Assembly (NCBI GenBank): GCA_013265495.1
Contig: MU057584.1
Coordinates: 474,608-538,607 of the forward strand
Reading direction: 5' to 3'
Source of the DNA: Vicugna vicugna
Taxonomy: Eukaryota
DNA: 64,000 nucleotides
Shown here: piece after piece, positions 3,001 through 54,666 of the stretch
How the letters are laid out: each line of letters begins with the position of its first letter
How positions within the stretch are numbered: position 1 is the stretch's first letter
The notes under the pieces: model-generated
Databases searched by the model: none
The model's input: only the letters and a program-made list of their open reading frames with translations
What the model was told of the DNA's origin: nothing
Position numbers and translations under genes: made by a program

Positions 3001-4235
3001 CTGGCCGGGAACCCTCAGCCTCCCTCAGTTCTGCTGGTGGCCGCCCCTTCCCAGGTGTGCCTGCACATGTGAGCGGCCCCTGATGCTGTCTACCCTTCCC
3101 TGTCCTGCTGCCTCCAGCCTGTCCCCAGGCTGTGCCTCTGATCTCTGGGAAGCATATTTACATCTCCTGCTTCCTGTCTCTAGGTTGACACCTCGTGCTC
3201 CTGTCCCCCAGGCTTTGTACCACCCCCCAACTCTGGGCCTGTCCTGTCCCTGCCTGTCCCCACCTTCCTTTCTGCCCTGTATTCCTTCTCACTGAGTGTC
3301 TATCTCTAAGCTTATCTCCAAGCTTATCTCCACTGAGCTCACCTGCTCCATCTTTTCAGGTTAGGAATCTGCATTCCTCCATCCCTCTCCCTTTCTGATC
3401 ATTTTCCTGTCACTACAGAGTTGTCTTTTGTTTTCCTTTTCTCTCTCACTCCCTCTGCATACCCCCTCTCTTCCTCCCTGGTTCTTCCCCTCTGCAGAGG
3501 TCACTCTGTGGTGTCTAGTCTCTGGGGCTTCAGAGACAGACACGAGTGAGTCTCCGTCCTCGGGCTCAAGGAATTAGCGCAGTGATGAAGTCATTTGTTA
3601 GCATACACTCAGGGGGCCTCAGAGCCATCCCTGGCTGCCGAGGAACAGAGGAAGTAGACCTCAGCAGGGCCCATCCTCGTGATTGCTGGGTGCTGGCTGT
3701 GTAGATACTGCTCCTGCTTCCAGCCCTGAGCTCTTCCTCACAACCTTGCCAGGTGGTCCTTGCCAGGAGTGATGCCAGAGGCCTGAGGTACCTCCACCAG
3801 CACGTGGTGGGGCTGGGATCTGAACGCAGGCTTTCTGGCCCCCCGAGGTGTGCTCTTACCAACCGTACCCTCTTACTTCTCCTGGCGGGAGAGCAGTTCA
3901 GAGCCTGGGCTTGGGAGGTGGAGAGGCCTGGAGTCTGCCCCTGACCCATTTTGTGACCTTGTGGGAGTGACTTAAATCTTTCAGCGTCTGTAGCCTCCTC
4001 CGTAAACGGAGGCAAATGAATGCAGAGTAGTTGAGGTCCCATGGGGCCTGGGAGGCTGACCTCAGAGTCCTGTGAACCACTTGAGCAAGGAGCCTGCTTG
4101 GGAGGCCTGAGGCAGCCCTGAGCCTCCGGCAGGGGCAAGCCTAGAAGGCTGCCTGGAGCAGGAGTCTAGCCTGGCACTGTGACAAGGCGGAAACTAACCA
4201 ACAAACCAAGTGTTAACTTAATGTCTTCCCTGCAG

Positions 4236-5969
4236 GAATCCTCGTGGCCCACTACCTCCAGAGCATCACGCCATGTCTGGCCCTGGGCGGAGAGCTGGTC
4301 TACCACCGGCGGCCCGGGGAGGAGGGCACTGTTATGTCACTAGCTGGGAAATATACATGTGAGCCTGGGGGCCCTGGTCACCTGGGTCTGAAGGAGGAGG
4401 GGGCTAGGGGCCTGGACTCCTGGGTCTGAGGGAGGTGGGGGAGAACCTAGGTTCCCAGATGCCCAAGCCCCCTTGGTAACCTGCCCCACCCCCCGCCTTG
4501 CTCTCTTACAGTGAACAACTGGGTGGCAACAGTAACGTTGGGTCAGGCGGGCATGCACGCCACGTACTACCACAAAGCCAGCGACCAGGTGAGCTAGTCC
4601 GGGGACTGGCTATCGGGGTATGCTTGCCAGGCACGGGGTGCTGGGGGCTCCTGTGCCTGAGACCCACCCAGGAGGCTGACTCGCCCGTGTTGTCCTGGCC
4701 TCTCCAGCTACAGGTGGGTGTGGAGTTCGAAGCCAGCACAAGGATGCAGGACACAAGTGTCTCCTTCGGGTACCAGTTGGACCTGCCCAAGGCCAACCTC
4801 CTCTTCAAAGGTACAGGCCCCCATTTCCTTACTTGGGAAACAACAGGTGACTCAGCTCTGAGGGGGTGTCTAGACCAGGGGAGATGGTAAAGGGCATCAT
4901 GCCGGGCCCCCAAATTACCCAGGGAGGGTAGGTGCCTGGGCCCCGAGCTTTGTATCTACCACCCTCCCTCCTCACCCTGCCAGTGGCCCTCTCCCAGTCT
5001 GCACACCGGGCCCCTTCTCTCTTTTTATCATGAGTGGAAGGCAACTTGGAGCACAGCCAGCCCACCCCGTATCTCCCATTTGGGAGGCTGCACAGCCTCA
5101 GCTAGATCCAGAACCTTCCCCCAGGCTCACCGACTCTAGTCTCGTTTCTTCTTGGACCTCAGTGCTTCTCAGGCTTGGGGTGTGTGGAGATTGCCCCAGT
5201 AAGGCAGCTTCAGTCGGCCTGGGCCAGGGCTTCTCAAGGCAGCGAGGAGGCCCAGTGAAGGGTTTGGGGTTTTTTTTGTTTTTGCCTCTGAAGCCTGCCT
5301 CCCCTGCTTGCCCCTCGAGCCCTCGCTCTGCAGGCAGTAGCCCGCTGTCAGAGGCTGGGTTTGGGTTGCGGCTCTGCTCTCCTCAACTCCTGGTCAGTGA
5401 GTCCTCCCTCCCCACCGTGCGGGAATGGCACCAGGTTCTTGCACACCTGTCAGGTTCTGGCACACAAGCCCTAGAGGAGAGTTCAGTCTTTCATTCAGCA
5501 GATACTCAGCCTTGTGTACCCAGTCCTGTGTCGAGGGGGCTGGGGACACAGCAGTCACCAGGCCCTGTCCCCCCCCCATCCCCGAGAGCTAACAGTGGGA
5601 GGGACAGACCCATCCCCAGAGAGCCGCAGCAACCTGGTATGAACAGCACTAGAGTGGATGCTGGGGGGGCTCTCCAGAGGTGGGGTGTCACTAAGCTCAG
5701 AGCTGAAATTCTTGGGGTGCATTGAGGGGCTTCAGGATGATGGGGACCACATGGACAGCAGTCTGGGGCAGCTCCTGGGGACAGAGCAAGAAGCCAGCAC
5801 GTGGCTCTTACACAGCTATCTGCCGGCAGGCTCCGTGGACAGCAACTGGATCGTGGGTGCCACGCTGGAGAAGAAGCTCCCACCCCTGCCCCTGACATTG
5901 GCCCTCGGGGCCTTCCTGAATCACCGAAAGAACAAGTTCCAGTGCGGCTTCGGCCTCACCATTGGCTGA
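4236..5969 (+). CDS. TOMM40: Mitochondrial outer membrane translocase TOM40, 3' part. Last four coding exons: 4236-4358, 4512-4588, 4708-4810, 5830-5969. The 5' exons lie upstream of the window.
   Basis: Spliced translation [147 protein letters not shown]. All introns are GT-AG with consistent phases (123/77/103 nt exons). Lies directly upstream of APOE. Confidence 0.97.
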
Positions 5970-7861: not shown

Positions 7862-8012
7862 CTTTTCTCTTTTTTCTTTTTTTTTTTGGAGGAGGTAATT
7901 AGGCTTATCTGTTTTGTTTTGTTTTGTTTTTTGGAGGCGGTACTGGGGATTGAACCCAGGACCCTGTGCATGCTATGCATGCACTCTACCACTTGCGCTA
8001 TAAGCACCCCCC
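7862..8012 (-). mobile_element. tRNA(Ala)-derived SINE (camelid Vic-1 type)
   Basis: Reverse complement has a TAGCGCAAGTGGTAGAGTGCATGCATAGCATGCACAGGGTCCTGGGTTCAATCCCCAGTACC head with A and B boxes, plus an A-rich tail. Confidence 0.8.
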
Positions 8013-8384: not shown

Positions 8385-8535
8385 GCCCACCTCGTGACCT
8401 GACGGGGGCTGGCCCAGCTCGCCCCAGCTCTGGAAGAGTGGGCGGGGCAGGAGGAGCCTTATAATTGGATGAATCTGGGATCCCTGAGTCCTGCTCAGCC
8501 CAGGAGGCGCGAAGGACACCGTTCCCCGGGAGCTG
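8385..8535 (+). promoter_or_regulatory. APOE: APOE proximal promoter and non-coding exon 1
   Basis: GC box GGGCGGGG at ~8440 and TATAAT at 8460-8465. The following sequence resembles human APOE exon 1 (recalled) and ends at donor GTGAGA at 8536. Confidence 0.85.
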
Positions 8536-9347
8536 GTGAGAAGCAGAGTTGGGGACACAGAGCCCAGTTCAGGGCTTCTGTGAGAGTTGGGCTGCGGGGG
8601 AGGAGGTGACCGTCCAACGTCCTACGCCTGGGCCAGGACAGAAGCAGGATGAGGCCAGAGACGGGACTGGACCTAGAAGAAGGGTGGGCAGCAGGGGCAT
8701 CCTGAATTGCCTGGAAGGTGTGGTTGGGGGAGCAGCTGGACCTGTAGGAAAAACTAAGTGAGCCGTTGCAAGAGCCACGAATTGTCATTGTCATTTATTG
8801 AGCACCTCCTGGGTGCCCCCATCGTCCTAATATCTCTTGTTAATGGGAGGCACGGGGTGAGGATAGGGAGTAACAGGATGGCCACCAGGATGGTGGCCGG
8901 GTTACTAGAGCATCGGTTGAAGGGCTTTTAAATGAGGATTAAATTAGCGAATATGTGGAAGGCAGTGTATAGATGTGAAGTTGGAGGTTAGAATGTGAAG
9001 GCACAACGAGGAATGCGAGGTTGGAACGCCCAGGTGGAGCTCCCATGGAACTCCGGGATGGAGGGGAGGGCGGGGTGAGTGGAATTTGAACTTTGGGAGA
9101 GGGCCTGGAATTTTGGCGGCGGCAGACCTGGGGATGAGGAGATAGGACAAGACAATTAGGGAATTAAATAGACAATGAAGGCGCCGCTTGGTAAACATTT
9201 GTGATAGGATTAGGCTGATGCAGATGCTGGGGTCCAAGGCTTTGAAGGCCGTGACCGGATGGGGCGGGGCTCTAGGTGGGAGGAGCCCGCACTGCCGTTG
9301 AGTGACAATTTCTCCCTCCCCTAGGTTGGCCAATCTCAAGCCAGAAG

Positions 9348-11073
9348 ATGAAGGCTCTGTGGGTTGCGTTGGTGGTCACGCTCCTGGCCGGTATGAGGGC
9401 GGAGCTTGCTCTGGTTCCCTGCCCCCGCCCCCTTCCATCCTCCGCTGCACCCCTTGCCCTCCTTCCATCCCTGGGTCCCCTCTTCTGCTGGTCTATCTTC
9501 TCAGGTCTGAGGCCTCTCTGACATTCACTGGCTCTGAGCAGCTGTTTTACTAACTCTGAGCCACAGTTTCCCAATCCTTAAAATGGGAGTTATAACAGTT
9601 TCTAATGCATCGTTGTCAGTCAGGTAGTGAGCACTAGGTAAGTGTCAGCTGTGATTAGTTTTATTCTCCGTCACCCCAGCATGGCCCTGCATGGAGAACA
9701 GGACAATCAATGCTGGTCAAGTGATTAAATGTGCTGGATGTCCCTCCACCCCCGTCTCTGCTCACCAGCTCTCTAAAGAAGCCCACCAGCACTGGTTGAG
9801 CACCTACTCTGTACCAGGTACTGTGTGCCTGCAGTGGGCAGAGGACCCTGACAGCCATGAACTTGCTCCCGTGCAGGATGCCGGGCGGAGGTGGAGCCGG
9901 AGCCAGACGTGCAGCTGGGGCAGGAGCAGCCCGAATGGCAGGGCAGCCAGCCCTGGGAGCTGGCTCTGGGTCGTCTCTGGGATTACCTGCGCTGGGTGCA
10001 GACGCTGTCTGACCAGGTGCAGGAGGAGCTGCTCAGCACCCAGATCACCCAGGAACTGACGTGAGTGTCCCTGTCCTGGCCCCTGATCCTCCTGGCAGGC
10101 AGTGCCTTCTGGACCTTCAGCCTCTACTGGTCTGGGTTTCTTTTTGTCCCCCGGCGCCGATTCCTGGGGGTCTGGGTCTCTGTTCATTTCTTGCTTTCTT
10201 TCCATTTTGAGCTCCTGGCTTCACCTCTCTCCGATTCTGTTTCTCGGCGCTTCCTGTCTCTGGAATATTACTCTCCTGGTCCTCCATCCTTCTAGCCCAA
10301 GATCCCTATTTCTCTCTCTCCATGCCCACGCTCCCGCCCTCTCGGCCCCCAGGGCGCTGATGGAGGAGACCATGAAGGAGGTGAAAGCCTACAAGGCGGA
10401 GCTGGAGGAGCAGCTGAGCCCTGTGGCCCAGTAAACCCGGGCCCGCCTGTCCAAGGAGCTGCAGGCGGCGCAGGCCCGGCTGGGCACAGACATGGAGGAC
10501 TTGCGCAGCCGCCTGGCGCATTACCGCAACGAGGTGCAGGCCATGCTGGGCCAGACCACCGACGAGCTGCGGAACCGCCTGGCCTCCCACCTGCGGAAGC
10601 TGCGGAAGCGGCTGCTCCGCGACGCCGAGGACCTGCAGAAACGCCTGGCCGTGTACCGGGCCGGGGCCGTCGAGGGCGCCGAGCACAGCGTGAGCGCCCT
10701 CCGCGAGCGCCTCGTGCCCCTGGTGGAGCAGGGCCGACTGGGGACCGCCACCACGAGCACCCTTGGCAGCCAGCCACTGCGGGAGCGCGCTGAGGCCTGG
10801 GGCCAGAAGCTGCGCGGGCGGCTGGAGGCGGTGGGCACCCGGGCCCAGGACCGCCTGGACAAGATGCGCGAGCAGTTGGAGGAGGTGCGCGCGAAGGTGG
10901 AGGAGCAGGCCAGCCAGATGCGCCTGCAGGCCGAGACCTTCCAGGCCCGCCTCAAGGGCTGGTTCCAGCCCCTGGTGGAAGACCTGCAGCGCCAGTGGGC
11001 CGGGCTGGTGGAGAAGGTGCAACAGTTGGCTGTGGGCACCACCCCCACACCTGCAGCCAGCAAGAATCAATGA
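9348..11073 (+). CDS. APOE: Apolipoprotein E, coding exons 9348-9390, 9877-10060, 10353-11073. Reading frame of 315 codons interrupted by an in-frame TAA at 10432-10434 (codon 103).
   Basis: Signal peptide [18 protein letters not shown]; exon 3 has [27 protein letters not shown]; exon 4 has [50 protein letters not shown]...[23 protein letters not shown]...[26 protein letters not shown]. Canonical splice sites; AATAAA at 11188-11193. Confidence 0.97.
10340..11010. other. CpG-rich island over APOE exon 4
   Basis: CpG density is visibly high compared with the flanking introns; human APOE exon 4 is known to carry a 3' CpG island. Confidence 0.7.
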
Positions 11074-12689
11074 GTGCCCGGGCATCCGCCTGGGGCGCCC
11101 CACTACTGCCCAGGTGCCCCCTGCCTCCCTCCAGCCTGCGGGAGGCCCTGTCCCTGACCCAGCTGTCCTCCTGGTGGGCCCTAGCTTAATAAAGAGTTCA
11201 TCAAGCTTCACCGCAGCTGCTGGGTGTTCCTGTGTGATTTCTCACAGCTCACGCCTGTTTCTCTTTCCTTCCCTACTCTGGCCACACAGCTGTCCTGTTC
11301 CCTCGGCCTGTGTGTGTCTGTTTGTCTCTTTCTAACTGTCTTGACTTCCTTCTGTCCCTTTCTGAGTCTTTCCCTTTTTTCTCCATCTCCACTCGTTCTC
11401 CTCCCGGCCTCTCTGGCCATTCTGCCTCCAAAACAGGACTCTGGAAGAATTCCACCCGTGGGTTAAATCCCGCGGTTGCCCCTGACTACTGTGGGCCAAA
11501 AAAGCAAGCTCTGTGAGCCTCCGTTTGCCCAGCTTCACCATACCGGCTTCATTGCCTCATGACTCAAAAGACCTGAGACCACCACCATTATCATTAAACT
11601 GTTTTTATTGCCGCTTCCCCACCCCCTTTCTCCCTCTCTTATCTGATTCTTGGTCTCCTTCCCTCTCCTGGCCTTGGTCTCAGTCCTGCTCTCCCCGAGA
11701 GGCTTCATTTTCTGGCTTCCTCTTTTCTTCCATCTCTGTCTTTTATCTCTCCCTCCACTGGTTTCTCTTGCCCCTGGCCATGCTTGGTGGTTTTGTTTGT
11801 TTCTTTTTCCCTTCTTTGTCTGGGTTTGCCCTCAGCCACCATCTTGTGGCATGTGGGCCCTGGGCCTGTCTCCCTCCCTCTGGATTAGTGAGTCCCTTCA
11901 CTCTGAGCTCTGCTTTCTAGTCCCCCACCCTCATTCTCATTCCTCTGCTCCTCGAGCTGGGTCATTGGCCTCTGGTCGACACTGACAAGCCTGCTGGGTG
12001 CTGGGAGCAGGCCAGGGAGGGAGGCATGCCCTGTGAGGGTCTGCAGCTGGGCCGTTGGTGTTCAGGGCGGGGCCATGTGGTAGGGAGTTGACATTCAGAG
12101 AAGCCTGGCTGGAGCCTGGAGATACCTGTGCTCTCCCCTCCCATGCCCTCCCCCTTGGTTCTCAGAGGAGGGGAGCGGGGTTCCCTCCACCAGGGACAGG
12201 CCGGAACTTGTGTCTGCAGGGCTGCCTCTGCCTGCTTTGGTTCCAGCACTCTGCCCTTCCAGCTTTCCCTGGCACTGCTTTGCTTGCCCTTGTGGAATCA
12301 GACTCCCTCCCCCTGCTCCACCAGATGAGTCACCCTTGGGGCTGAGTGAGGAGGGGAAGTATCTGTGGGCTCAGAGGCAGGGGCCTAGTCCCACCTGGGC
12401 TTCTGCTGACTCACTGTGTGCCCAGGAGCGAGGGCTGAGCCCTCTGAGCCTGCTTCCCCAGATGTCCATGGGGGCGGAGACGTCCACCATCTCTCCCACT
12501 GGAAGAGCTGAATCTTGAATTCTGTATGAACAGAGGCTGGCAGAGGGTGCTGTGGGGTGAAGGCTGACTCCAAAGGGATTCAGAGAGACAGCCTAAAGTC
12601 TAAGAAAGGGAGGGAGAAGATGAGGGAGAAGGAAGGAGAGGACACTTAACCTCTCACTGAGCCATCGAATGTTCTAATCTGCACCTCTG

Positions 12690-13260
12690 TTGCCCCATCT
12701 GTAAACAGAAACTCCTGTAGCTGAGTGGAGGACCAGATCAGCAAAGCAAAGTTGTCATTCTGTTCTGAGGGTGGAGAGGGGGAAAGCAGACATCTAGGGG
12801 GTTGTGTGGGAAGCACTGGGCTCACGGAGGAGGAAGCCGGTGTCTGGGAAGGCTGCTGGGGGCTGACGAGCTGGAAGCACTGAGCTGGCCAAAAGGCTGT
12901 TGCAATCCTGCCAAGGTAGTGTCTGTGCTTCCTTCTCACAACCACCCCCCTCAGCCCAAGACAGACACGTGGTTGTTGGGGCACTAGGCCAGCCAACCTA
13001 GAGTCTGGGGCCAGGGCCACCCTCTCCCAGCTGCCAGGGATCACTAGCAGTCAAAGGCAGCTGAGAGGATGGGAGCAGGCATTGGATGGCAGCCCTGGGG
13101 GCTTGATCTGGTGGAAGGGAAAAGGGGCGGGTGCATGGTGTTAGGAGGGGCCCAGTGGGTGAATGAAAGCAGATGGAGTGTTTCCAGGGAACCTGGAGGC
13201 TTGGAGAGTTGGGGAGCAGAGAGAAAGGGGCTGCTGGTGGAATGGACAGAAGGGTGCACA
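12690..13260 (+). promoter_or_regulatory. Probable orthologue of the APOE multienhancer (ME), with a DR4-like LXR element at 13038-13053
   Basis: CAGCTGCCAG-GGATCA-CTAG-CAGTCA-AAGGCAGCTG resembles the human ME LXRE context (GGGTCA-CTGG-CGGTCA, recalled). Position between APOE and APOC1 fits. Boundaries approximate. Confidence 0.6.
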
Positions 13261-13289
13261 TTGTGAACCTTGCACCTGAGGTTTTGTAC

Positions 13290-13426
13290 TTTTAGGGGGG
13301 AGGGGGTGGTAATTAGATTTACTTGTTTGTTTGTTTGTTAATTATTTTAATGGAGGTACTGGGGATTGAACCCAGGACCTCATGCATGCTAAACATGCGC
13401 TCTGTCACTGAGCTCTACCCTCCCTC
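13290..13426 (-). mobile_element. tRNA(Ala)-derived SINE (Vic-1 type)
   Basis: Same tRNA-like head on the minus strand with an (AAAC)n / A-rich tail. Confidence 0.8.
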
Positions 13427-13650
13427 CATGCACTTTTGACAAGTTGAAGAGACCCTCTCCAAAAGGGAGATTGGGGGCTGTGAAATTAAGACCCCAGAGA
13501 GCATCCAGGGAGGCCTAAGAGTCTTCCAGATGCAGAAAGATGGGGGAATAGAACGGCTAGTCTGAAAGTGACTGGAGGTGGCCGTGAGATAGGTAAATGT
13601 GTGGAGGCAGACTGTATGACCCCAGAGTCCTGGAGTATGAGTTATTTGAG

Positions 13651-13737
13651 GCAGGCAGGTAATAGCTCAGTGGTAGAGCACATGCTTAGCATGCACAAGG
13701 TCCTGGGTTTTATCCTCAGTAGCTCCATTAAAAAAAA
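13651..13737 (+). mobile_element. tRNA(Ala)-derived SINE with 11-bp target-site duplication
   Basis: TAGCTCAGTGGTAGAGCACATGCTTAGCATGCACAAGGTCCTGGGTT plus poly(A), flanked by AGTTATTTGAG at 13640 and 13738. Confidence 0.85.
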
Positions 13738-14246
13738 AGTTATTTGAGCTGAAGGGGCCTGTTAAGAAGGGGGAGGGGATGATAGAGGTGGCCTGGGGAC
13801 ACAGTGTGAATTAGTTACTCAGTTACTGAGAGACTTACTGAGAGACCCCCTGAGGCTGGAGAAGGGTCTTAAGCAGGAGAGCCCTCTAAGGGATCATGGC
13901 CACAGGGAGAGGGAGAAGGCTGTCCCCTGAATGGGGAAGACACCATGGCAGCCTGAGGTCCCCAACAGTCAGGGAAATTTGGAGGTGCAGGTGCTGTACA
14001 TCAAGATGCTTTTGGCCTAAGTCTTCAGGCCTATGTCCCACCTGATCCCCACAGCCACCAGGGAGGGGTGGGGAGGAGGAGGTAGGTGGGTACAGGGAGG
14101 CAGGTGAGGCTTAAGGGGAGGAAGACTGACCTTACCTGACTCCCCCCGCCATCAAAAAGGCCCCGGGCCAGGCTAGGTCCTGTCACCTGTGCTGTCCTCA
14201 GAGCCCAGAAGGAAATCGGAGAGTGCTGCTCTGGCCCCATCCCAAC

Positions 14247-16276
14247 CTAAGGCTAATTCTGTCACTCCCGGTCCTGCTGGTGGCTCTCTGCATGGTTTTG
14301 AAAGGTGAAAATGGGATGGGAGACTGAGAGTTTGAGATTTGGGAAGGTGAGGCTACCTTGGGCCTGAGATGCAGGCTTAGAGGACCCTTGAGAACTCTGG
14401 GGTCCCTTCTGTACCCTGGTTCCCACAAAGTCCACCAGTCGCCCTCACTTCCACCCTCCCAGTCATGTCTCAGAGTTCTCTAAAGCCAGGTCCAGTGTGT
14501 GTCAGTCTGCCCAGGGGAGCCCTAGTAACCAATGACGTGTCCATTCTAGCCCTCTGGGATTGGCTGTCTTGCTTTTACCTCCTGGAAAGGGCTGGGGAAC
14601 TGGTCCAGTGCTGAGTAAGGCAATTCTCAGCATCTTTCAAGCCCCATCTGGTGCCTCCAGTACCGTCTCCTGCATTCTAACACCATGACCCCCAAGAATC
14701 ACATTCAAAGGTCTCCTTTCCCATCCCCAGAATCTCATCCCAAGGGCTCCCAATACTGAAGGTTTTGTACCCGTGTCCCTTTTCTGGGCAGGCCTAGCCC
14801 CTGCCCAGGCCTCATCAGCTTTTTGGACCACATCCCGATCCTCAGAAAGTTGGCAAAGTTTGGAAAACCCCACGAGATGACTCAGGGTGTCGTTGGCACC
14901 ATCAAAAATAGCAAAGTTCCTCTGAAGGCTACATAAGGACCCTCTCCAGGGTAAGGGAAGGCTGGGGTGTATGGACTTACACATTGGGATAACTAAAGTC
15001 AGGAGAGGCTGACAAAGTCCCTGAGGTCACACGGCTGGTCCTTAGATCTCAGGGTGCTCAGACATGGGGGACAGGTTCCCTGACTCCCATTCAGACACAG
15101 TGTAGAGATGGTCCTGGGTGGTGGTGAAAAACCCAAGCATGGGAGTCACGGTCCACAGGCAGACCTGTGTCCTCAGGCTGGCAAAGACCCACTGCTCCCT
15201 GTGTGATCATGTGCCTCAGTTTTCTCATCTGCAAAATAGGTGCTCTGAGGGGAAATAAACTAGAGGAACTTCGTAGTGCCTGACATCTGGTAAATACTCA
15301 ATACATTCAACTGGAAGTTAGCTGTTGAGTTAGAGGATCATTCATGACTGAATATTATGGAGCATCCACTAACTGCCAGGAACTGTTCCAAGGTGGGGAA
15401 TGACAGAAATGAACAGGATAAAGTCCCAGCTCATGGGGAGCTGACATTCTGCAGGGGAGAGAGGAAGGAGGAGAGAACACACTATAAACCCGTATATTTT
15501 CAAGAAATTAGTCCAGCTAGATCCAAATACTGAGAGGACAATAAACAGGGCAGGTGTAAACAAGGCAGGATGGAGTAGGGGCTTTTGCAGACTTGGTGAC
15601 TGGATCTTGGAAAAGGAGACACTTTCAATCCAGATCTTAATGATTAGGAAAATCCAGCCAGGCCAAGGGCAGCTTGTTTCCTGGGAGGGTGAGTGCAAAG
15701 GCCCTGAGGCAGGAGTACATAAAGTACCTAAAGGAGAGGGAGGCATTCCAGGCAAGGAAACAACCCAGTCAAGGACTGGGAGACTGGAAATTGCCCTTGA
15801 GGAAGTAGGGGACAGCTAGGGTGAGAGCAGGCTTGGTAGCAAGAGATGGCAAGCCTTGAAAGCCAGGCCAGGGTGAGGTGTTGTGACTTCAAGGTGCTCA
15901 TCTGGGAAATAGGCACAGAAGTTGGGGGCACCCAGCCTAGGGCTCCTCCTAATCCCACAGACAGGGTCCACCCTGCTGTTTTCTTGGGGGAAGGGGATAA
16001 TCAGGCAGTCAGGTATAGGGGAGGATTTGGGCATCCTGCAAAGAGGCAAAACACAGTCATCCCTGCTCCACTTCTCTCTATAGAAACTGGTTTTTGAAAA
16101 CCATCTTCCAAGTCTAGCAGGTATTTCAGAAAAAAAGAACCTCCTGAGCACCAGGAGGTCCACCTCTCTCCTCTGGGTCTGTGCTCTGGGAGGGCTCTCT
16201 AAAGTTTCGCACACCATGGACTCTGGATGGATGACTCCATGAAGTGCCATATCACCCCCGCCCACCAAACAATAAA
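14247..16276 (+). pseudogene. APOC1: Apolipoprotein C-I unitary pseudogene (exon remnants 14247-14304, 14792-~14932, 16084-16276)
   Basis: First remnant reads (CTA)RLILSLPVLLVALCMVLK-G, 58 nt to the GT donor, with ATG replaced by CTA. Second reads GLAPAQA, then frameshifts (other frame ...LDHIP..RKLAKFGK...TIKNSKVPLK), with TGA at 14878 and no GT at the expected donor. Third reads NWFLKTIFQV*; AATAAA at 16271. Confidence 0.9.
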
Positions 16277-16451
16277 AATTGTAGAGAGAATTCTGAGTGC
16301 TTCTTTGCTGCGTGGCCAGGGCTATCTGACAGGGTGGGGGCTGTGCCTTTGGGGAAGGGCAGCAAGGACACAATGGATTGAGTATTGTCTACTTGCTCTG
16401 TGTTGAGGACTTTGAACTTCATCATCTTAAAAGAATCCTCATAAGAAACTT

Positions 16452-16580
16452 GGGGGAGGACATAGCTCAGCGGTAGAGTGCATGCTCAGTGTGCATGAGG
16501 TCCTGGGTTCAATCCCCAGTGCCTCCATTAAATAAATAAATAAATAAGCCTAATTACCCCACCAAAAAAACTAAAAAAAA
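16452..16580 (+). mobile_element. tRNA(Ala)-derived SINE (Vic-1 type)
   Basis: tRNA-like head, (TAAA)n, CCTAATTACC motif and A tail. Confidence 0.8.
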
Positions 16581-16589
16581 AGTGGAAGA

Positions 16590-17040
16590 TAGCCCCCTCA
16601 AAATACCCATCAATTGATGAATGGATAGATAAATCCATAGTGTATGTGTGACCATGTATATATACACACACACACAGTGGAATATTTTTCAGCCATAAAA
16701 AGGAACAGAGCACAGACACATGCTACAGCATAGATGAACCATAAAAATGAAGTGAAAGAAGCCAGTCACAAATGACCGTATATTATACGATTCTATTCAC
16801 AAGCAATGTCCAGAACTGGGAGACAGAAAGCAGATTAGTGGTTGTCTTGCTGTGGAGAAGGGGCTGGGAGTAAGTGCCAGGGGGTGTGGGGTTTCCTTTT
16901 GGGATGATGAAATGTTCTGGAATTAGATAATGGTGATGGCTAAAAACTTAGCAAATAGATCAAAAATCATTGAATTGTGCATCTTAAAAGGGTGACTATT
17001 ATGGTATGTGCAAATCTCAATATAAAAAAAATGAATGAAT
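16590..17040 (+). mobile_element. Old L1 3'-end fragment
   Basis: CCCATCAATTGATGAATGGATAGATAAA...GGAATATTTTTCAGCCATAAAAAGGAA...GATGATGAAATGTTCTGGAATTAGATA, typical of L1M 3' UTRs. Confidence 0.65.
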
Positions 17041-17299
17041 GGAAATCTTACAGACAAAGGCAGAAAGAAGAGATGAAGAAGGGGACATTCCAACCTCTCT
17101 TCCACCCCAGACTTCCCTGACAACCCAAAGCAGCCAGGGAGGGGAGTGGTGAGGGATGCCAGAAGGGAGGTGGGTACAGGGACTCAGGGGAGAGGGGATG
17201 GGGTCTGGACTGGGACAGGGACCCTGGTGTGAAAAGAAAGATTGATTTGGGAGTCTGATGATCTTGCAGACACAGATATGTGGGCTCAGAGATGCTCTC

Positions 17300-17645
17300 T
17301 GGCTCCAGACACACACGCTAGGGTCTCAGACCCCACTGCTCCCACCCCCAACCCCCTCCTTGTGACCTCTCTGCCCCCACCCACCACCTGGAGTTGTTTT
17401 TGAGCTGCCTCTGAGGTCCATCCTGAACGACCTTCAGCCTGTTCCTGCCCTGGATAACAGAGATGAGCAAACATTGCAAACAGCAAACAGCTCATGCTGA
17501 CCTTGGAGCTGGGGCAGGGTCAGTGACCTTCCCTCCTCTTCCCCCCACCTCCTCCAACCCCGGCCCTGCTTCAGCCTCTCTCTTACCCTGTAGGATCCAG
17601 TCGGGAGGTGAGGGCGGTTGTCCTGGCTTGGCTGTAGTGTGAAAA
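17300..17645 (+). promoter_or_regulatory. Hepatic control region (HCR) of the APOE/C1/C4/C2 cluster, single copy
   Basis: GCTGCCTCTGAGGTCCA..CTGAAC..CTTCAGCCT, clustered FOXA-type GCAAACA motifs (17467-17489) and GCTGACCTTGGAGCTGGGGCAGGGTCAG closely match the human HCR-1 core as recalled. Confidence 0.85.
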
Positions 17646-18139
17646 AGCTGGATTCAAATTCACCACTTGCTGGCTGGGAAGCCCCACCGCCTACAGCCTC
17701 AGTTTCTTCATCTGTAAAATGAGAATGAAAAAGATGCCCACTTCATAGGGCTGGAGCAAGTTAATTCAATGAGTTAATGCACTAAGGCCCTGCCAGGGAG
17801 CCTGATGCATGGTGAGAGCTCAGGGAACACAGGCTTTATAAACAGCAGCTGGGGTTGACAGAGGGGCTTCGCACCGTGTCTGGTGTGGCTCACTGCGTGC
17901 TTTACATACGATCTGCTTTACTCTCCTGGGTAGGTACCTAGTCCATGTCTCTGGTTCCTGGATGGAGAAACAGGCCCAGAGACATTAAGCAAGGGGTACC
18001 AGGTCACACAGTAGGAAGGAGGTAGAGCCAGACTCTGAACCCAACACCACGCTGCTTCTCATAACACCATGCAAGGTGGGGTTTTTTCTTTTTTCTTTTT
18101 TATTATGGTAAAATACATAACATAAAGTTTACCATTTTT

Positions 18140-18304
18140 TAATTTTTAAAATTTATTTATTTATTTATTTATTTATTTTTTGGTGGTGAGGAAGGTAATT
18201 AGGTTTATTTATTTATTTAAATTTGGAGGAGGTACTGGGGATGGAATCTAGGACCTTGTGTATGCTAAACACGCACTCTACCAATGAACTATACCCTCCC
18301 CCCT
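18140..18304 (-). mobile_element. tRNA(Ala)-derived SINE nested in an old L1 fragment
   Basis: Minus-strand head plus (TTTA)n, flanked by ACCATTTTT on both sides within L1-like sequence. Confidence 0.75.
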
Positions 18305-18582
18305 CATTTTAACCATTTTTAGGTGTAAGGTTCACTGGCATTAAGTACATTCACAATCTCGTGCAACCATCATCACTACCCATTTCTGGAACGTTTTCAT
18401 CATTCCAAACAGAAACTCCTGGAGGTTTTATTTTGCTGATTATTGTCGGTGAGGAACTCCAGGAAACATTCATTGAGCACCTACTGTATGCCAGAGCCCA
18501 CGCTGGGGCCACTAGAATGGACAGCATTCTGCTGGAAGCCTCTGGGTCCATTCTGTACGGTCGCCCAGGTTGTGGCCAAGGA

Positions 18583-18754
18583 GGGGTTGTCAGATTCACC
18601 ACCTGAAAAGACAGGATGCCTGGCGGGATTTCAGATACACAAGAAATAATTTTTAGTGTAATTCCCAAATATTGCATGGGACATATTTATACTAAAAAAT
18701 ACTCATTACTTAGAAATTCAAATGTCACTGCGTGTGTTTTATCTTGTAACCTGA
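18583..18754. mobile_element. MER53-like palindromic hAT MITE
   Basis: GGGTTGTCAGAT...ATCTTGTAACC termini, with an internal inverted repeat around TTTTTAGT...CCCAAATATTGCATGGGAC...ACTAAAAA. Confidence 0.65.
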
Positions 18755-19922
18755 GACCAAGGAATCTGGCCCATGGTCCCCTGGCTAAACTGTGCACCCT
18801 GGCTTATGGCTGGGTCCTCTAGGAGAAAAAGACTCATTTTTATTCTGTCTGGTAGTTGGCCTGACCCTGATGTTGGCAACCTCCTACTATGTGGGCCTGG
18901 AGCTTTCCTTCACAGGGTGTCACCCAGCCTTCACGTGAACTCCATTACGCTTGTTACCAGCCCCATTTTACAAATGAAAACATTGAGCCCAGATAAAAGA
19001 GTCTTTTTGCCCAGGTCACGTGGTGAAGACATGTGTGGACCTGTAGCCCAGTGGCCAAGGGATCTTAGAGACAGAAGAAACAATAACAAAAAGCTGCGAT
19101 CTTCGAGCACCTAAATTACCTGGGTCCACGTTGAGAACTTCCTTTGTAATCACATCATTCAATTAACGTCCTAAAAAAAAAAAATATGGATTGTGGGCCC
19201 ATTTTACAGAGGAGGAAGCTGAGGCCTAAAAGCAAGGCTGTCACATGAAGTGGGATCAGGATTTGAATCCAGCTCAGCCCAGAAGGCCAAAGAGCCTCCT
19301 GCCTTCCCCAGTCAGGTTAGGGTGCTGGGAGAGTAGGAAGGAGGAAGGAAGGAGACCAGCAGGGGAGAGCATGGCCTCTGACTGTCACTGTCACCTGGGC
19401 CCCCCTCTCTTTGATGTCCCTGCCAAGGGGCAGGCGGAGGTGGCCAGGGGAGGGCTCTGCTCAGTGCAGCTGCCCCCTCCCCCAACCTGGAGTGCTGAGC
19501 ACAGAGGGACAGAGGGACAGAGCCCCCAGAAATGTCGTTCTCTGGGCCCAGCACCCCCTCTGCTTCTGCATTCTGGTCCTGGCCTGTGTTGTGGGTGAGG
19601 AGCCAGTCAGCGGGTGTGGGGACCGCATAGCAACAGATGCGTCTGGGAGTGGGTGTCATGGGAGACAGTGTGTGAAAATGGTACACTTGCAGGGTCAGTT
19701 CAGATGCTGGGGGTCATGAACATGCACTTGTGCGTGTGAGCGGAAGAGAATGCAGTTATGGGAAACGTGTGTGTCCATGAACATGCATGTGTATCCGTGT
19801 GTGCACATGTGAGTCTTTATGGGGTATTTATGCAAAAGATTTTAGGGTCTGGAAACATGGAAGGGTGTCTGTGTGTATTGGGATGTGAGCATGTCTGGGT
19901 TCTGCACATAAGTTTAAAATGT

Positions 19923-20018
19923 AGGGTACAGCTCAGGGGTAGAGTGCATGCTTAGCAGGCACGAGGTCCTGGGTTCAATCCCCAGTACCTCCACTTAAAA
20001 AAATTAAATAAAAATAAA
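19923..20018 (+). mobile_element. tRNA(Ala)-derived SINE in APOC4 intron 1
   Basis: tRNA-like head with A tail, flanked by TAAAATGT. Confidence 0.75.
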
Positions 20019-20906: not shown

Positions 20907-21012
20907 GCTTGGGGGCTGGACTCCTGGGTCTGACAGAGGAGGGGCTGGGGATCTGGGTCTGAGGGAGGAGGAGGGGCTGGGGGCCTGGGCTCCAGGGTCT
21001 GAGGGAGGAGGA
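20907..21012 (+). repeat. MSR1-like ~36-bp minisatellite (about 3 units) in APOC4 intron 2
   Basis: Repeated GGGGGC(C)TGGACTCCTGGGTCTGAGGGAGGAG units. Related degenerate copies occur at ~4366-4440, and on the opposite strand at ~23280-23545 and ~25545-25670. Confidence 0.65.
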
Positions 21013-21764: not shown

Positions 21765-21957
21765 TGGCTTGACCTCAGGAATGTCACTGTCCTCTGCCCC
21801 CATGCCACCCCCCCAGCCGTTCTGTTGGCCAGGACTTTGGCCAAGGCCTCGAGGTTGTGGGGGGGTGGCTCTGGAGGACAGAGCTATAAAGAGCTCAAGA
21901 GCTATAAAGGCTTTCTCTGTCCGTGTGGAGCTGGTGCAGACAGCCTGCCAGAGTCCG
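21765..21957 (+). promoter_or_regulatory. APOC2: APOC2 promoter and non-coding exon 1
   Basis: TGACCT nuclear-receptor half-site at ~21770, HNF4-type GGACTTTG at ~21832, TATAAA at 21885 and 21903, exon 1 donor GTAAGA at 21958. Confidence 0.8.
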
Positions 21958-49100: not shown

Positions 49101-52100
49101 TTTTTTCAGAAAATGTGCCTTAGTTGCCAACCTTGGAAATTCAAAGCATCACTTTAAAACCCAGATTTCTGACTTTTTGTTTTTATAAAACCTTGATCCG
49201 TGGTGGCCCTGGGGGCAGCTGTAGTCTGGAGCTGAGCTGCAGCTGTCCCCTCCAGCCGGGGCCTGCCCAGCCCTTCCTACCCTGTCCTCTCCGCTAAAGT
49301 CAAGCAGCCCTTCAGCTCCTTGGCACAGCCAAGAAATGTTCCCTGTCCTCCAGTCTCTGTCAGAGGGGCCCCATCAGGTCCCTGCACCTTTGTCCCCAGA
49401 GGCTGAGTGATCGCCGCTGCCCTGGCCCCCAGGGGTACCTGTGGCCTCCGGCCTGGGCTGATGGTGCCCCTGCTCCGCACGCCTGCAGATGTGAAGTTCG
49501 ACGCCGTGAGCGGTGACTACTACCCCATCATCTATTTCAATGACTACTGGAACCTGCAGAAGGACTACTACCCCATCAACGAGAGCCTGGCCAGCCTGCC
49601 GCTCCGTGTCTCCTTCTGCCCGCTCTCTCTCTGGCGCTGGCAGCTCTACGCCGCCCAGAGCACCAAGTCGCCCTGGAACTTCCTCGGTGATGAGCTGTAT
49701 GAGCAGTCAGATGAGGAGCAGGACTCAGTGAAGGTGAGGCAGGGACATGGGGGCTTCCCAGCACCTTCCTGGGCTGCAGGAGGGGAAGGGGAAGTGGGTC
49801 AGGTTGGCGGCCTGGGGACCTCTGGCCAATGCTCCCCTGCCCACAGTTTTACAACCTCCCAAGCCCCATCCCTGCAGTGGGCAGGAAATAGGACCTGGCT
49901 GACTCTGGGAGTCCTGTCTCTGCAGCTTCCATGGTGCTGCTGGTCATGGCTTTTCTGTCTGCTTGGCCAGGCCCTAAGGGTCTGGACCTGCTCTGCCTGC
50001 TTCCATCCAAAGCCGCCTCCCCGACTTTGGGCTTGGACTCGATGTCTCTGCCCCCTCTCCCAGTGTCCTGGAGTATCATCCTTCTCTCTGCCTGCGTCTG
50101 TGATGTTGAGACTTGGCTGTGCTTGCTTGGGGTTGTTTTTGGTGTTGGGTTTCTGTTCCTCACTCCAACTGTCCCTTCTTCTCTGTTACTCTGCCTCCCC
50201 CCATTGCTGTCTCCCCACCTCTTCTCTGTCTCTCTCCATCTTTCCTCCACCCTCTCTGCATCCCTCACCCACCTCTCTGTGCCCATTTGCCCATCTCTGA
50301 CCTGCTCTCCTCCCAGCCAGCACTCTCTCCTCCCTCTGAGAAGCCCCAGGGGTTAGGTCTGTGGGGAAGGTCAGCAGGTTCTTCGGGTCCAGAAGGAAGA
50401 GACGGGCCGGCTAATGGAGGTGCTGCATTGGTCGGGCCCCAGCACAGTAGTGCTCACAGCCATCTCCCCCACCCCCGCCCCAGGTTGCCCTCCTAGAGAC
50501 CAACCCCTACCTGCTGGCGCTCACCATCATCGTGTCCATCGTCCACAGTGTCTTTGAGTTCCTGGCCTTCAAGAACGGTAGGTAGGGGTGGGACCCTGGG
50601 TTCTATGAGAGGTCATGGGGGACTGGGGACAAGGGGGTACATGGTGGGAGGATAGGGCCTGCCCCCTCCCTCTTCCTCTCAGGCCTTCCCCATACCTGGG
50701 CTCCGTTACCCCCATCTCAAGAGGCCTAGTGAGCAGTCGAGGGCAATGGCCGCAAACTCCCAGTCCAGAAACTCCCATCCACCGGGTGTGGTGCTGGGGG
50801 AGGGGCTGAGCCTGCTCTTTTGGCAAAGGCCAGGATGGCACCACCAGGAAGCCGGGCCGGGGAACTCCAAGGCCGGGAGCAGGGAAGCCCCAGGGCTGCT
50901 CCTGCCACCCTGCTTGGCAGGCTGCCTGTTGGGGAAGACCCCTCAGGGTTGAGTGTATGGGGCCCTGAATGGGAAGGTGACAGCCGTGTCCCCAGAAGGC
51001 CGCTAGATTCCAAAGGCCAACACTGGTGATAGCCAGCATTTGAGGGGGACTGGCCACATGCAAGGCACTGTTCCAAGCACCCTCACCAGGGAGCTCATGG
51101 AGCCCCTGCAGCCACAGCTCCGTGAGGCAGCATCGTCACCCCCGTGTTTATGGTGAGGACACAGAGGCTCAGGGAGATTAGTTACTCAGCCCACAGTTAC
51201 ACAGCTCCCAAGAGTGTGGATTTAGATCTAGGCAGCCTGCTTTGGCTCCAGGCCCTCGTTCCTTCCCTGGAGAACCCCAGTCTGAAGGAGGACTGCTGTT
51301 CTGCAGCTTCTGGGAGTGACAGTAGTGATGATGATTATTATTATTATTACTGTCTTCCTCCTCATCACCAGTAAGAGGACATTTGCCGTGACTGAGTTAC
51401 CTTCTGGAAAATTAAAAATCGAACAGTAGGTGGTGTCAGCCCGTCAGGGTGGAGTCTGATAGCAGTGGTGCGTGCTGTGCCTGGGCATGCGCCGGCTTGC
51501 AGATGCTCCTGCTGACCGTGAGCTGGGTCCCCTGGGGTCCATCTTTTCCTAATGAGAAATGCAGGCACAGAAGAGGTGGTTCCTTGCTCAACGTCATGCA
51601 GCAGGGGTGTGGGCCCTAGGCGAGCCCAGCTTTGTGGCCTCTGGTCTGAGGCAGAACTAGGATTCACCCTCCCCCACCAGAACCATGTCTTCAGACTCAT
51701 TCTTCCCAGTTAGATTGGGGGGAGTCCTGTGAGTGTCCCCTTCAGATCTCAGGGTCTGAGGGTGCTGGAGCACTGGAATCAGAATCAGAGCCAGGTGGGC
51801 GGCCAGCACCCGGGACATGGCCCCATGTGACCACGGGCTTGGCTTCTCTGTAACACAAGCATGTACTGGGTTGGCGTCCTGTGGCAGTAGGTGTCAGATG
51901 CTCAGCCTAGGCAGGGTCAAACAGTGCTGTGACCCTCATTTGGCTGATGGGGAGACCAGGGCTCAGAGAGGGGCTGACCTGGGCCCTGGAGGGTCGGGGG
52001 TGGGGGATGGTGTCCCAGGACAGTAGTACTGGAAGGAGCTTCAGTTGGAGAGCAGAGCACACAGACCTGTGTGTGCCCTGAGTGTCTGTGGGCCAGTTCC

Positions 52101-54666
52101 TTCATGGTTTCAGGGTGGTGGGCTGGGAGAGGGGGTCCTGAAGCCTGTGGCCCAGATCTTCTCACCCAGGGAAGGCCCCATAGCATAAGGGTGGACAGCT
52201 CAGGTCTAGTGTCAAGCAGACCCGGCTTCTATGCAGATTCTTCTAGGTCTGGCTGTGTGGCCTTAGGAGTGTGGCTTCTCTGAGTAGCCCTTAGCACTTA
52301 GCGAGTGGTGAGCACCCAGAACATGTAAGAGATCACTGTCACCATCACTGCCAGCCTAGGGACTGCGCCCTGGGGGCTGGGATGTCCCAATGTGAAGACT
52401 GCAGATATCCTGCTTGCCTGGTGCTCGACATGGCACCCATAAAGCAGAGACTACCCCTTCACAGGCAGGGAGATTGTGTGCACCCTCCGCCTTGGCAGAC
52501 CCCGTGCAGCCCCGAGGGTCTGAAGGGTATGGGGCTTGAGGGAGCTGCAGGAGGGACTCGGAGGCTTCTCAGACTCCTGGCTTTCCCCCATCTCCCACGC
52601 ACAGATATCCAGTTCTGGAACAGTCGGCAGTCCCTGGAGGGCCTGTCTGTGCGCTCCGTCTTCTTTGGCGTCTTCCAGTCTTTCGTAGTGCTCCTCTATA
52701 TCCTGGACAACGAGACCAACTTCGTGGTCCAGGTCAGCGTCTTCATCGGGGTCCTTATCGACCTCTGGAAGATCACCAAGGTCATGGATGTCCGGGTAAG
52801 GCCGGGCTGCCGGGCTGTTTCGGGAGCCACCAGGGGTTGGGAACCAGACCCTGGAGCTGGCCCCTGGGGGATTCCCAAGACCAAGGGGATTTTTGCACCA
52901 GGGGATTTTTTGGGTCACACGTGGGGCAGGGGAACTGGGAACGGTGGGGAAGGGCAGGGGCTGGAACTGGTGTGGGGGGTGGGAGCCAGTGCAGCAGCTG
53001 ACCACGGCCTCCCTCCCTATGTGCAGCTGGACCGGGAGCACAAGGTGGCAGGACTCTTCCCCCGCCCAACCTTCAAAGACAAGTCCACATACGTGGAGTC
53101 CTCGACCAAAGTGTATGATGATGTGAGTGTCCCCAACAGTGGGTCCCAGAGAGGGTCTCCAAGTATCTGCACACTCCTGAGGTACCAGGGGATGGGCCGT
53201 GAGTGCTGACAAGCCCATGCTTTATGGCTTGTGCCCTACCCTCCAGTGTCCCCCGCCTGCCATGTATACTTCCTGGCCAAGTCCAGAGTTCCCAGGGCCA
53301 CCTGGAAATCCCCCGGCTGGCCTGCCAGACCAGGTGTGCATGGGTGAGGGTTGGGAGCAGGGGTGCCAGGCGAGGCCCAAGAGCCGGATCCCAGCCCTGC
53401 CCTGTGCCCCACAGATGGCGTTCCGGTACCTGTCTTGGATCCTCTTCCCGCTCCTGGGCTGCTACGCTGTCTACAGCCTCCTGTACCTGGAGCACAAGGG
53501 CTGGTACTCCTGGGTGCTCAGCATGCTCTACGGCTTCCTGCTGACCTTCGGTGAGCAGGCTCTCACCACCCTCAGCTCCCCCGGTTAGGGCAGTTGTCCA
53601 GCAGCCCTCAGCCCCATGGTGGGCTGTGCTGGGGCCTCAGCAGTCATTAAGTCAGCCGGCCCCCACCCTCCTGGCGCTCAAGGTCCAGTGGTCAGGATGG
53701 CACGTGGGGAGCCTCCCAGGGGTGCCTGGTCCAGTCTAGGGGTCAGGGAGGGCTCCTGGGAAGCCCCAAACTGTACATTTCAGTCCTCATCCTCGGGCGA
53801 ACCCATGGAGTAAACAAGCAGACGAATGAGTTACAGCATGTAACTGAGGTAGGATGTGCCTGGATGGTTGGAAGGCAGCAAGGAGGCCAGTGAGACTGGA
53901 GCCAAGTGAATGAGGGGAGAGAGGCCAGAAATGCAGTCAAAGAAGCCAAGGTTCAGGACGCATGCCCCTTCCTCTGCTCACGAGTGTCTCTTCACCACTA
54001 CCACAGGCTTCATCACCATGACACCCCAGCTCTTCATTAACTACAAGCTCAAGTCTGTGGCCCACCTGCCCTGGCGCATGCTCACCTACAAGGCCCTCAA
54101 TACCTTCATCGATGACCTGTTTGCCTTTGTCATCAAGATGCCTGTTATGTACCGGATCGGCTGCCTGCGGGACGGTGAGGCTGTGTGGGCAGGTGGGTGG
54201 GCTGGCCAGCAGGCTCGCACCAGAGCTGGACACAGGCAGAGCCCTGGTCTGAGTGGGAGGCCCTGGCCTGGGGGTTCAGTCCCAGGGGGCTCAACCCACT
54301 CTTTACAGGACCACTCCACCCACCCCTGCTGGCAGTGAGCCTGGCGGGCCCCTCCCCCTCACACTGCCCCTCCCACCCCCAGATGTGGTCTTCTTCATCT
54401 ACCTCTACCAACGGTGGATCTACCGCGTCGACCCCACGCGGGTGAACGAGTTCGGCATGAGTGGCGAGGCCTCGACGGCAGCTGCCCCTGGGGCCCAGGT
54501 CCCGACAGCAGCAGGGGCCCTCCCACCTGCCCCCACCACCACCACTGCTGCCGCCAGCGAGGAGGCCTCCACGCCCCTGCCTGCCAAGCCCACCCAGGGG
54601 GCCAGTTCTGCCAGTGAGCCCCAGGAAGCCCCTCCAAAGCCAGCAGAGGACAAAAAAAGGGATTAG
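27688..54666 (+). CDS. CLPTM1: CLPTM1 multi-pass ER membrane protein, 668 aa. 14 coding exons: 27688-27759, 33161-33273, 39938-40061, 41107-41265, 43506-43623, 47933-48018, 48795-48915, 49489-49733, 50484-50577, 52605-52795, 53027-53122, 53415-53550, 54007-54174, 54383-54666.
   Basis: Starts MAAAQEADGAGSAVVAAGGGGSGQ. Contains YYPIIYFNDYWNLQKDYYPINESL, FEFLAFKNDIQFWNSRQSLEGLSVRSV and GFITMTPQLFINYKLKSVAHLPWRMLTYKALNTFIDDLFAFVIKMP. Ends EDKKRD* (KKXX-type). Exon lengths sum to 2007 nt, all GT-AG; AATAAA at 55083. Confidence 0.97.
29243..29465. mobile_element. MER20-like hAT DNA transposon
   Basis: TTTTCAACCTCAGCACCATTCACATTTGGGGTTGGATAAT...GGATGTTTAGCAGCAT...GTTTGAGAACCACT matches the MER20 layout. 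Confidence 0.7.
33385..33715. mobile_element. MLT1-type MaLR LTR fragment
   Basis: TCTCACAGTTCTGGAGGCTAGAAGTC...AAGGTGTCAGC...TAATGACCTCA...CACATGAATTTGGGG motifs. Confidence 0.65.
35754..36021 (-). mobile_element. 5'-truncated L1 insertion with 17-bp target-site duplication
   Basis: Poly(T)/(TTTTA)n followed by L1 3' UTR in antisense; TAAAATGTAAAATTTTT at 35737 and 36022. Confidence 0.75.
37015..37229. mobile_element. Tigger2/MER8-like TcMar MITE
   Basis: Terminal inverted repeats CAGTTGACCCTTGAACAAC and GTTGTTCAGGGTCAACTG, with TA at the left junction. Confidence 0.8.
38458..38572 (-). mobile_element. tRNA(Ala)-derived SINE
   Basis: Minus-strand head; CTCAAATATTT flanking repeats. Confidence 0.75.
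42390..42910 (-). mobile_element. ERVL-type solo LTR (MER54/MER74-like)
   Basis: Reverse complement contains GACTGCCCCTCCCAGGGCTAG..TTCCTAGAGATAACAAAC..TTTCATATACAAAACAACCAA. Family assignment from memory. Confidence 0.5.

Follow-up and report, generated by a model that had tools for sequence, protein, structure and literature searches.

An in-frame stop codon shared by the syntenic APOE and a processed pseudogene of a New World camelid may mark an inherited natural knockout

APOE is central to remnant lipoprotein clearance, to models of atherosclerosis and to the risk of Alzheimer's disease, and ApoE deficiency in humans and mice leads to impaired remnant clearance and hyperlipidaemia. In the alleles of human familial ApoE deficiency and in Apoe-knockout mice, just as is predicted for the locus described here, a premature stop removes the receptor- and lipid-binding parts of the protein. 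The unitary pseudogenes of mammals offer a second likeness, since there, too, a conserved gene has a sole copy, in its syntenic place, and that copy bears one inactivating lesion. Another precedent lies in gene/pseudogene pairs such as VWF/VWFP1 and GBA/GBAP1, in which disease alleles are generated by gene conversion from the pseudogene, and which resemble the present case in that a stop of the pseudogene turns up in its functional parent, the tract around it being free of other markers.

The gene concerned lies in a stretch of 64,000 nucleotides (hereafter the window, C452:474608-538607 of the assembly to which it belongs). Its coding frame is interrupted by a TAA that recurs, in the same codon, in a processed copy of the gene elsewhere in the same genome. 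As argued below, the stop may be no chance error, and the locus may be a natural knockout of APOE that is inherited.

The APOE gene of the window and its in-frame TAA

The window contains an APOE gene with a four-exon structure and canonical splice sites (Table 1). Joining exons 2, 3 and 4 at their canonical AG/GT borders gives a 948-nt frame in which codon 103 is the sole internal stop, and direct reading of nucleotides 10420-10446 gives CCT GTG GCC CAG TAA ACC CGG GCC CGC. Window sequence and spliced frame therefore agree in placing the TAA at 10432-10434, where a preliminary description of this DNA had reported it. What that description said of the rest of the gene also stands: the frame is otherwise open for 212 codons up to the TGA, the splice sites and the AATAAA are intact, the stop falls within the last exon, and the product predicted from the spliced frame is 102 residues long, with neither the C-terminal domain nor the basic helix that binds the receptor. 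A TATA-like box and an exon 1 donor (border at 8535/8536) are present as well. The basic receptor-binding stretch [10 protein letters not shown] follows the TAA in frame. The cleavage site at ~11215 is placed by the processed copy, whose A-tail starts right after the base matching 11215.

Table 1. Features of the APOE locus and its neighbours, in window coordinates unless a contig is named.
Feature	Position	Strand	Remarks
TOMM40, last exons	4217..5966	+	Upstream neighbour; 4 of 56 ORFs match PF01459 (Porin_3), profile positions 128-271 in order
TATA-like box (8460-8468) and presumed non-coding exon 1, up to GT donor	8460..8535	+	Role assigned from position alone
APOE exon 2	9325..9390	+	ATG at 9348; most of the signal peptide; AG acceptor, GT donor; exon 2/3 join exact in retrocopy
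APOE exon 3	9877..10060	+	Canonical AG/GT; exon 3/4 join exact in retrocopy
APOE exon 4	10353..11215	+	CDS ends with TGA 11071-11073; AATAAA 11188-11193; cleavage site ~11215
In-frame TAA, APOE codon 103	10432..10434	+	80 nt into exon 4; roughly one third into the gene
212 open codons 3' of the TAA	10435..11070	+	Basic stretch and C-terminal lipid-binding region
APOC4 exons	20585-20887, 21157-21336	+	Downstream neighbour; Pfam PF15119/PF05355 search
APOC2 exons	23077-23409, 23512-23652	+	Downstream neighbour; Pfam PF15119/PF05355 search
CLPTM1 exons	49491..53486	+	4 matches at G000:C452:524098-528093, none with an internal stop

The identity of the gene is clear from its last exon, which, translated with X in place of the stop, reaches 181.6 bits over residues 2-209 with Pfam PF01442, whose cut-off is 90. 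Its best relatives are mammalian ApoE proteins, with full-length identities of 70-78%, and nearly all the named entries among the 79 related proteins found at E <= 1e-20 are apolipoprotein E. The surroundings are equally telling. TOMM40, APOE, APOC4, APOC2 and CLPTM1 keep their order on one strand, and the APOE of the window is therefore the parental, syntenic copy. In the region that holds APOC4 and APOC2 (20585-23652), 4 of 148 ORFs match PF15119 or PF05355; APOC1, which was also looked for at the APOE locus, was not detected.

The residue replaced by the stop was expected to be Glu, and at the aligned column 46 of the 53 ApoE proteins from other mammals indeed have Glu, the remainder having Asp (4/53), Gln (2/53) or Ala (1/53). 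The Glu codons of the APOE coding sequence are, again as anticipated, nearly all GAG (32 GAG, 3 GAA), in a gene whose GC3 is 0.905. On these counts, Glu is ancestral at codon 103, and TAA probably lies two steps from the ancestral codon.

A processed pseudogene with the same stop

When the assembly of the window (G000; 2.03 Gb in 12,405 contigs) was searched with exon 4, two places were found, the window itself and C8955:51930-52649, which is 99% identical; a Pfam scan of the whole assembly likewise detected two APOE-like loci only. The second locus (L002, hereafter the retrocopy) is identical to the spliced parental mRNA at 1074 of 1088 positions, with no gaps. It is intronless, exons 2, 3 and 4 being joined exactly, and its 5' end is truncated, the G of the initiation codon (L002 1275) being its first base, so that it has no ATG. 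Its 3' end coincides with the parental cleavage site, ...CACCGCA being followed by a run of 12 A (L002 2362-2373), and it is embedded in DNA with a GC content of 0.40-0.42. By these hallmarks it is an L1-type processed pseudogene of APOE and a dead copy. The 59 nt before it and the 65 nt after it were compared for a target-site duplication, and no common word of 7-16 nt was found; the duplication may be short or decayed.

The retrocopy has the identical TAA at codon 103, together with a private TAG at codon 261. Thus, the parental APOE has one in-frame stop (TAA) and the retrocopy two (one TAA and one TAG), while three APOA-type loci have none. Since both APOE-like loci carry stops, there is no intact APOE in this assembly, and, judged by its sequence, the parental lesion sits in the only APOE copy that could be functional, the other being dead on three counts (TAA, TAG and no ATG).

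This second TAA changes how the first one has to be read. The preliminary description had left a choice between a very recent allele and a sequence or assembly error, a choice that cannot be kept in this form because the presence of the identical TAA in a processed pseudogene of the same genome excludes a random base error. Moreover, the TAAs of the two copies have a common origin, since TAA and GAG are probably two steps apart; that each copy acquired its TAA independently, by what is probably a two-step change, was considered and is not credible. To go by the two sequences, either the stop dates back at least as far as the retrocopy does, or the retrocopy was its source, through gene conversion or through cross-talk during polishing.

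The retrocopy is also represented among alpaca protein models. The 138-residue alpaca model XP_072813579.1 (Vicugna pacos) is, residue for residue, its frame between the TAA and the TAG, while XP_072813477.1 (146 residues, same species) corresponds to an exon in its upstream flank (L002 1076-1210) spliced to 1276-1578 and ends at the TAA. An older Vicugna pacos model, XP_015107714.1, is one residue off the translation of the retrocopy. On this correspondence, the alpaca RefSeq models named 'apolipoprotein E-like' are translations of the retrocopy, and because they match it, the genome of the window is that of a New World camelid, and the annotation of alpaca reproduces both the retrocopy and its TAA.

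The parental gene has left fewer traces. A collection of 5.8 billion proteins, in which the retrocopy models are present, yielded no clean full-length camelid ApoE among the proteins of 30-419 residues searched with exon 4 and those of 55-177 residues searched with the N-terminal part. A search of representative proteins gave no long camelid fusion protein either, XP_072813579.1 being the only one with more than 90% identity among the 50 matches listed. In Data S1 of a published study, the APOE group (N0.HOG0001204) comprises two alpaca entries, XM_015243093.2 and XM_015252228.2, and one mRNA model for each of three Camelus species; Liftoff transfer in the same source places XM_015243093.2 also in llama, guanaco and vicuna, and XM_015252228.2 in guanaco and vicuna (PMC12127551). 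We infer that XM_015243093.2 is the parental model because its accession number is close to that of CLPTM1 (XM_015242978.2), and that XM_015252228.2 therefore represents the retrocopy. The proteins of the three Camelus models and of the alpaca parental model are all missing from the 5.8-billion-protein collection, and since the Camelus models are equally absent, the lack of a clean camelid ApoE is ambiguous evidence. None of the 119 proteins fetched from this collection contains an X residue, which suggests that parental camelid models may have been stop-corrected and hence dropped from it.

Other sources bear less directly on the question. In the text and six supplements of that study, the APOE symbol is not mentioned apart from one reference (PMC12127551), and the literature searched contained no report of a stop in, a loss of or a retrocopy of camelid APOE. 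The flanks of the codon, with NNN in its place, had no match in metagenome, prokaryote-genome or viral contigs (0 in each), and a search of metagenomes for APOE-related loci brought up one irrelevant locus at 38% identity, so that no outgroup DNA was gained. Sequencing runs were compared with the gene by shares of sampled words alone: 14 DNA runs from 4 organisms contain 0.80-0.84 of these words, and 5 RNA runs (plus one guessed to be RNA) contain 0.35-0.48, the exonic share of the stretch being 0.57. The RNA shares are compatible with an abundant transcript and have no bearing on the codon or on the copy from which the transcript came.

Origin of the stop

Our favoured reading, to which we give about an even chance of being right, is that the TAA was a germ-line nonsense codon in APOE mRNA before retroposition, and that it is an established null allele of New World camelids rather than an error or a private mutation. 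The stop would have arisen among New World camelids (the alpaca/llama group), in their one APOE gene, which is the syntenic one. Translation would end after residue 102 and release an 84-residue secreted fragment which, having neither the LDL-receptor-binding helix nor the lipid-binding C-terminus, is predicted to be null for full-length ApoE. A stop in the last exon would let the mRNA escape exon-junction-dependent decay and stay abundant, hence available for retroposition, and the TAA-bearing message would then have been reverse-transcribed by the L1 machinery to give a processed pseudogene on another contig. In such a sequence of events the stop is older than the retrocopy, which would be why the TAA is identical in both, and the absence of further decay would be explained by youth, in line with the near absence of CpG decay between the two copies.

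Another explanation is that the parental gene in truth has GAG or GAA at this codon and that short reads of the retrocopy were used in polishing the parental contig there. The source of exactly this variant is present in the same genome, the parental gene otherwise looks fully functional, a conserved gene with a premature stop is often an error when the assembly is a draft, and the parental TAA rests on one assembly. Nevertheless, we find this explanation quite improbable in view of the quality of that assembly, which consists of gapless contigs of long-read type that tie the parental exon 4 to its introns. Samples of C452, C8955 and the window, 304 kb in all, do not contain a single N, the two contigs measure 946,723 and 101,197 bp, and match coordinates on other contigs extend to ~14 Mb. 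Contigs so long and gapless make a short-read-style collapse unlikely, which leaves cross-talk during polishing. However, the retrocopy was itself assembled and would have been a better home for its own reads, and the 13 other differing bases have been kept separate between the copies, none of them mixed, every polarised difference that is derived in the retrocopy being found on the retrocopy. Base quality also looks good, as the APOA-type genes and the CLPTM1 exons are free of stops.

Which copy had the TAA first is a question on which the other differences between the two have something to say. With 53 outgroup mammalian ApoE proteins used for polarisation, two changes are derived in the parent, E25D and V71I, both of which are conservative and lie in exon 3, upstream of the stop. 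Those derived in the retrocopy are R149H (two bases, CGG to CAT), L156M, D242G, E253K, V254M, V258L and Q261stop. Four more differences, two synonymous and two in the UTR, are left unpolarised because there is no outgroup DNA. In the 776 nt after the stop, retrocopy and parent thus differ at 12 positions, of which all eight that are polarised are derived in the retrocopy and four are unpolarised. This asymmetry (0 versus 8-12) has a one-sided p of 0.004, for the eight polarised differences, to 0.0002; p becomes 0.19 when all four unpolarised sites are counted as parental, and 0.23 when clustered events are compared (2 versus 5). As a proof of selection on the parent, the relative-rate test was therefore set aside, its p ranging from 0.0002 to 0.4 and hinging on polarisation and clustering.

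Nor do these differences keep time. The 12 private changes of the retrocopy are clustered (P ~0.01), and only one of the 14 differences between the copies is a CpG transition, despite 76 CpGs; with such clustering and almost no CpG transitions, the changes are not clock-like, and many of them may date from retroposition itself. An age of 2-11 My calculated from the 12 private changes was rejected as unreliable for the same reasons.

The parental gene itself shows no sign of relaxed constraint after the lesion. Among the 108 columns with a conservation of 90% or more, it departs at 2, where the median of the 53 other mammals is 4; both departures are common to the retrocopy, and none of the changes assigned to the parent falls after the stop. 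With so few conserved columns affected, an ancient loss and a long period of relaxed constraint can be set aside, which bears out the earlier view that this is not an old gene loss. APOE has been retained in all 53 other mammals aligned, and the prior for its loss is low for that reason.

Several of these observations sit uneasily with a stop that came first in the parent. The two-base change of the retrocopy, CGG to CAT, is made up of the same types of substitution (G to A and G to T) as GAG to TAA, and the TAA could consequently be an error of the retrocopy's own that reached the parent secondarily. That eight out of eight polarised changes downstream of the stop are derived in the retrocopy is the pattern of a gene still under selection, albeit one that is not robust to clustering. 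In addition, the sole APOE retrocopy would have to arise in the short time elapsed since the stop. The alternative suggested by these points is that the TAA arose on the retrocopy, at retroposition or later, and that a short non-allelic gene conversion moved it into the parental exon 4. It lies in a 218-bp stretch of exon 4, from the boundary with intron 3 to the next differing base, in which the copies show no other difference, and a short conversion tract, of at most 218 bp, would have left no other trace there. The changes of the retrocopy are clustered and multi-base, of the same kinds as GAG to TAA, and a parent with no change of its own after the stop and two departures among its conserved columns looks like a gene that was functional until recently. 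The parental null could, if so, be recent, segregating in the population or even heterozygous in the animal sequenced. However, this scenario requires two events where the retroposition of a mutant mRNA requires one, and conversion between unlinked loci that share ~1.1 kb is rare. A private allele would also not lead one to expect that a clean alpaca ApoE is absent from the protein collection across two annotation generations, ambiguous as this absence is. We therefore regard a transfer from retrocopy to parent as unlikely.

There remains the possibility, which seems to us very remote, that the stop is real, old and conserved in camelids, and that readthrough, recoding or editing gives full-length ApoE, with the downstream frame under selection. 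It would account for the intact conserved residues and for the fact that the parent has none of the eight polarised changes after the stop (four more being unpolarised) while the retrocopy differs at 12 sites, although this asymmetry is not robust. It would also fit the want of a clean ApoE of any camelid in the collection in spite of the RefSeq mRNA models of Camelus, if these were flagged for an internal stop. The sequence around the codon, on the other hand, speaks for termination, as had been supposed from the start. In mammals, the strongest context for termination is a TAA with A as the next base, leakiness being associated with motifs of the UGA-CUAG type; the context here, CAG TAA ACC, is of the former kind and has no such motif. 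Rescue by structure-driven readthrough was rejected, there being no signal of a stimulatory structure in the 100 nt from the stop, whose minimum free energy (-40.1, where shuffles average -41.3; z = +0.35) is equalled or bettered by 127 of 200 shuffles. Rescue by splicing fared no better, since none of the cryptic acceptors in frame is preceded by a pyrimidine tract: downstream there are three in-frame AG candidates, all of them with poor tracts (pyrimidine 0.35-0.45), and their use would delete 52-114 codons. Finally, no mammalian nuclear gene is known to have an internal TAA that is read as sense.

Significance and comparison with known systems

If the favoured reading is right and the TAA is an established null allele, alpacas and llamas would be natural APOE nulls, and as such the first natural knockout in a large animal. 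This would point to a possible genetic background of hepatic lipidosis and hyperlipidaemia in llamas and alpacas, reports of which, taken here as context and not as evidence, are cited in a study on dromedaries that saw no lipidosis in its own animals (PMC10728728), and it would bear on why llamas and alpacas make strong antibodies to ApoE. There is a practical side as well, as the retrocopy annotated as 'apolipoprotein E-like' will capture RNA-seq reads from spliced APOE and confound the genotyping of exon 4.

How far the precedents carry can now be stated more precisely. In comparison with VWF/VWFP1 and GBA/GBAP1, the donor here would be an unlinked processed copy, and transfer in that direction is only a candidate. 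The retrocopy resembles other L1-mediated processed pseudogenes in being intronless, exactly joined and truncated at its 5' end, with a poly(A) at the parental cleavage site and an unlinked, AT-richer location. As a record of its parent, however, it differs from them in that it has no target-site duplication that could be found and in that its changes, clustered and almost free of CpG transitions, make a poor clock. In contrast to unitary pseudogenes, the parental gene has no second lesion and no excess of change at conserved sites (2/108), which would make it at most a very young loss. Compared with human ApoE deficiency and Apoe-knockout mice, lastly, the present case is possibly the state of a whole species or lineage, in healthy livestock, and one that has been fossilised in a retrocopy.

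Mutation pattern of the APOE retrocopy

The private changes (n = 12) of the intronless APOE retrocopy that lies on another contig of the same assembly are clustered, with four of them in 21 nt and five in 57 nt (P ~0.01), and only one of the 14 differences from the spliced parental mRNA is a CpG transition, despite 76 CpGs. This clustering, together with the near-absence of CpG transitions, points away from steady decay and towards a complex mutation event or retroposition that was itself error-prone. Elsewhere in the assembly, contigs C11847, C5810, C6350, C7314 and C11058 contain several matches to Porin_3 (VDAC/TOMM40-type) that are interrupted by stop codons and probably represent additional processed pseudogenes.

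Parental APOE upstream region and the search for APOC1

Upstream of parental APOE, a T-rich and TTTTG-repeat tract precedes a tRNA-like SINE located ~450 nt upstream of the TATA-like box, the 9-mer of which occurs twice in the window.

APOC1 was not detected with the Pfam ApoC-I profile (PF04691), either at window 11300-20600 or anywhere in the assembly, where there were no matches at E <= 0.001 and only three in all, each of them off-locus (E 4-8). Between APOE and APOC4, the profile matched none of the + strand ORFs of at least 45 aa and none of the 89 of 22-44 aa, a scan of the window's + strand in which short exons may escape ORF-based search. APOC4 and APOC2 were both recovered by the same profile/ORF approach that gave no APOC1.

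Alpaca RefSeq models built on the retrocopy

In alpaca RefSeq models, an exon from the flank is spliced onto the retrocopy through an AG acceptor formed at the insertion junction, and the resulting reading frame terminates at the retrocopy's TAA. The dead retrocopy is thus the source of two annotated 'apolipoprotein E-like' proteins.

Features of the retrocopy locus (L002) and of the parental upstream region
Feature	Position	Remark
APOE processed pseudogene	L002 1275-2373 (G000:C8955, the window's own assembly; outside window)	12 private changes
Alpaca RefSeq gene-model span	L002 1076-1581	flank exon joined to retrocopy
Flank exon	L002 1076-1210	
AG acceptor	L002 1274-1275	
T-rich and TTTTG-repeat tract	window 7870-7930	
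tRNA-like SINE	window 7925-8010	
APOE TATA-like box	window 8460-8468
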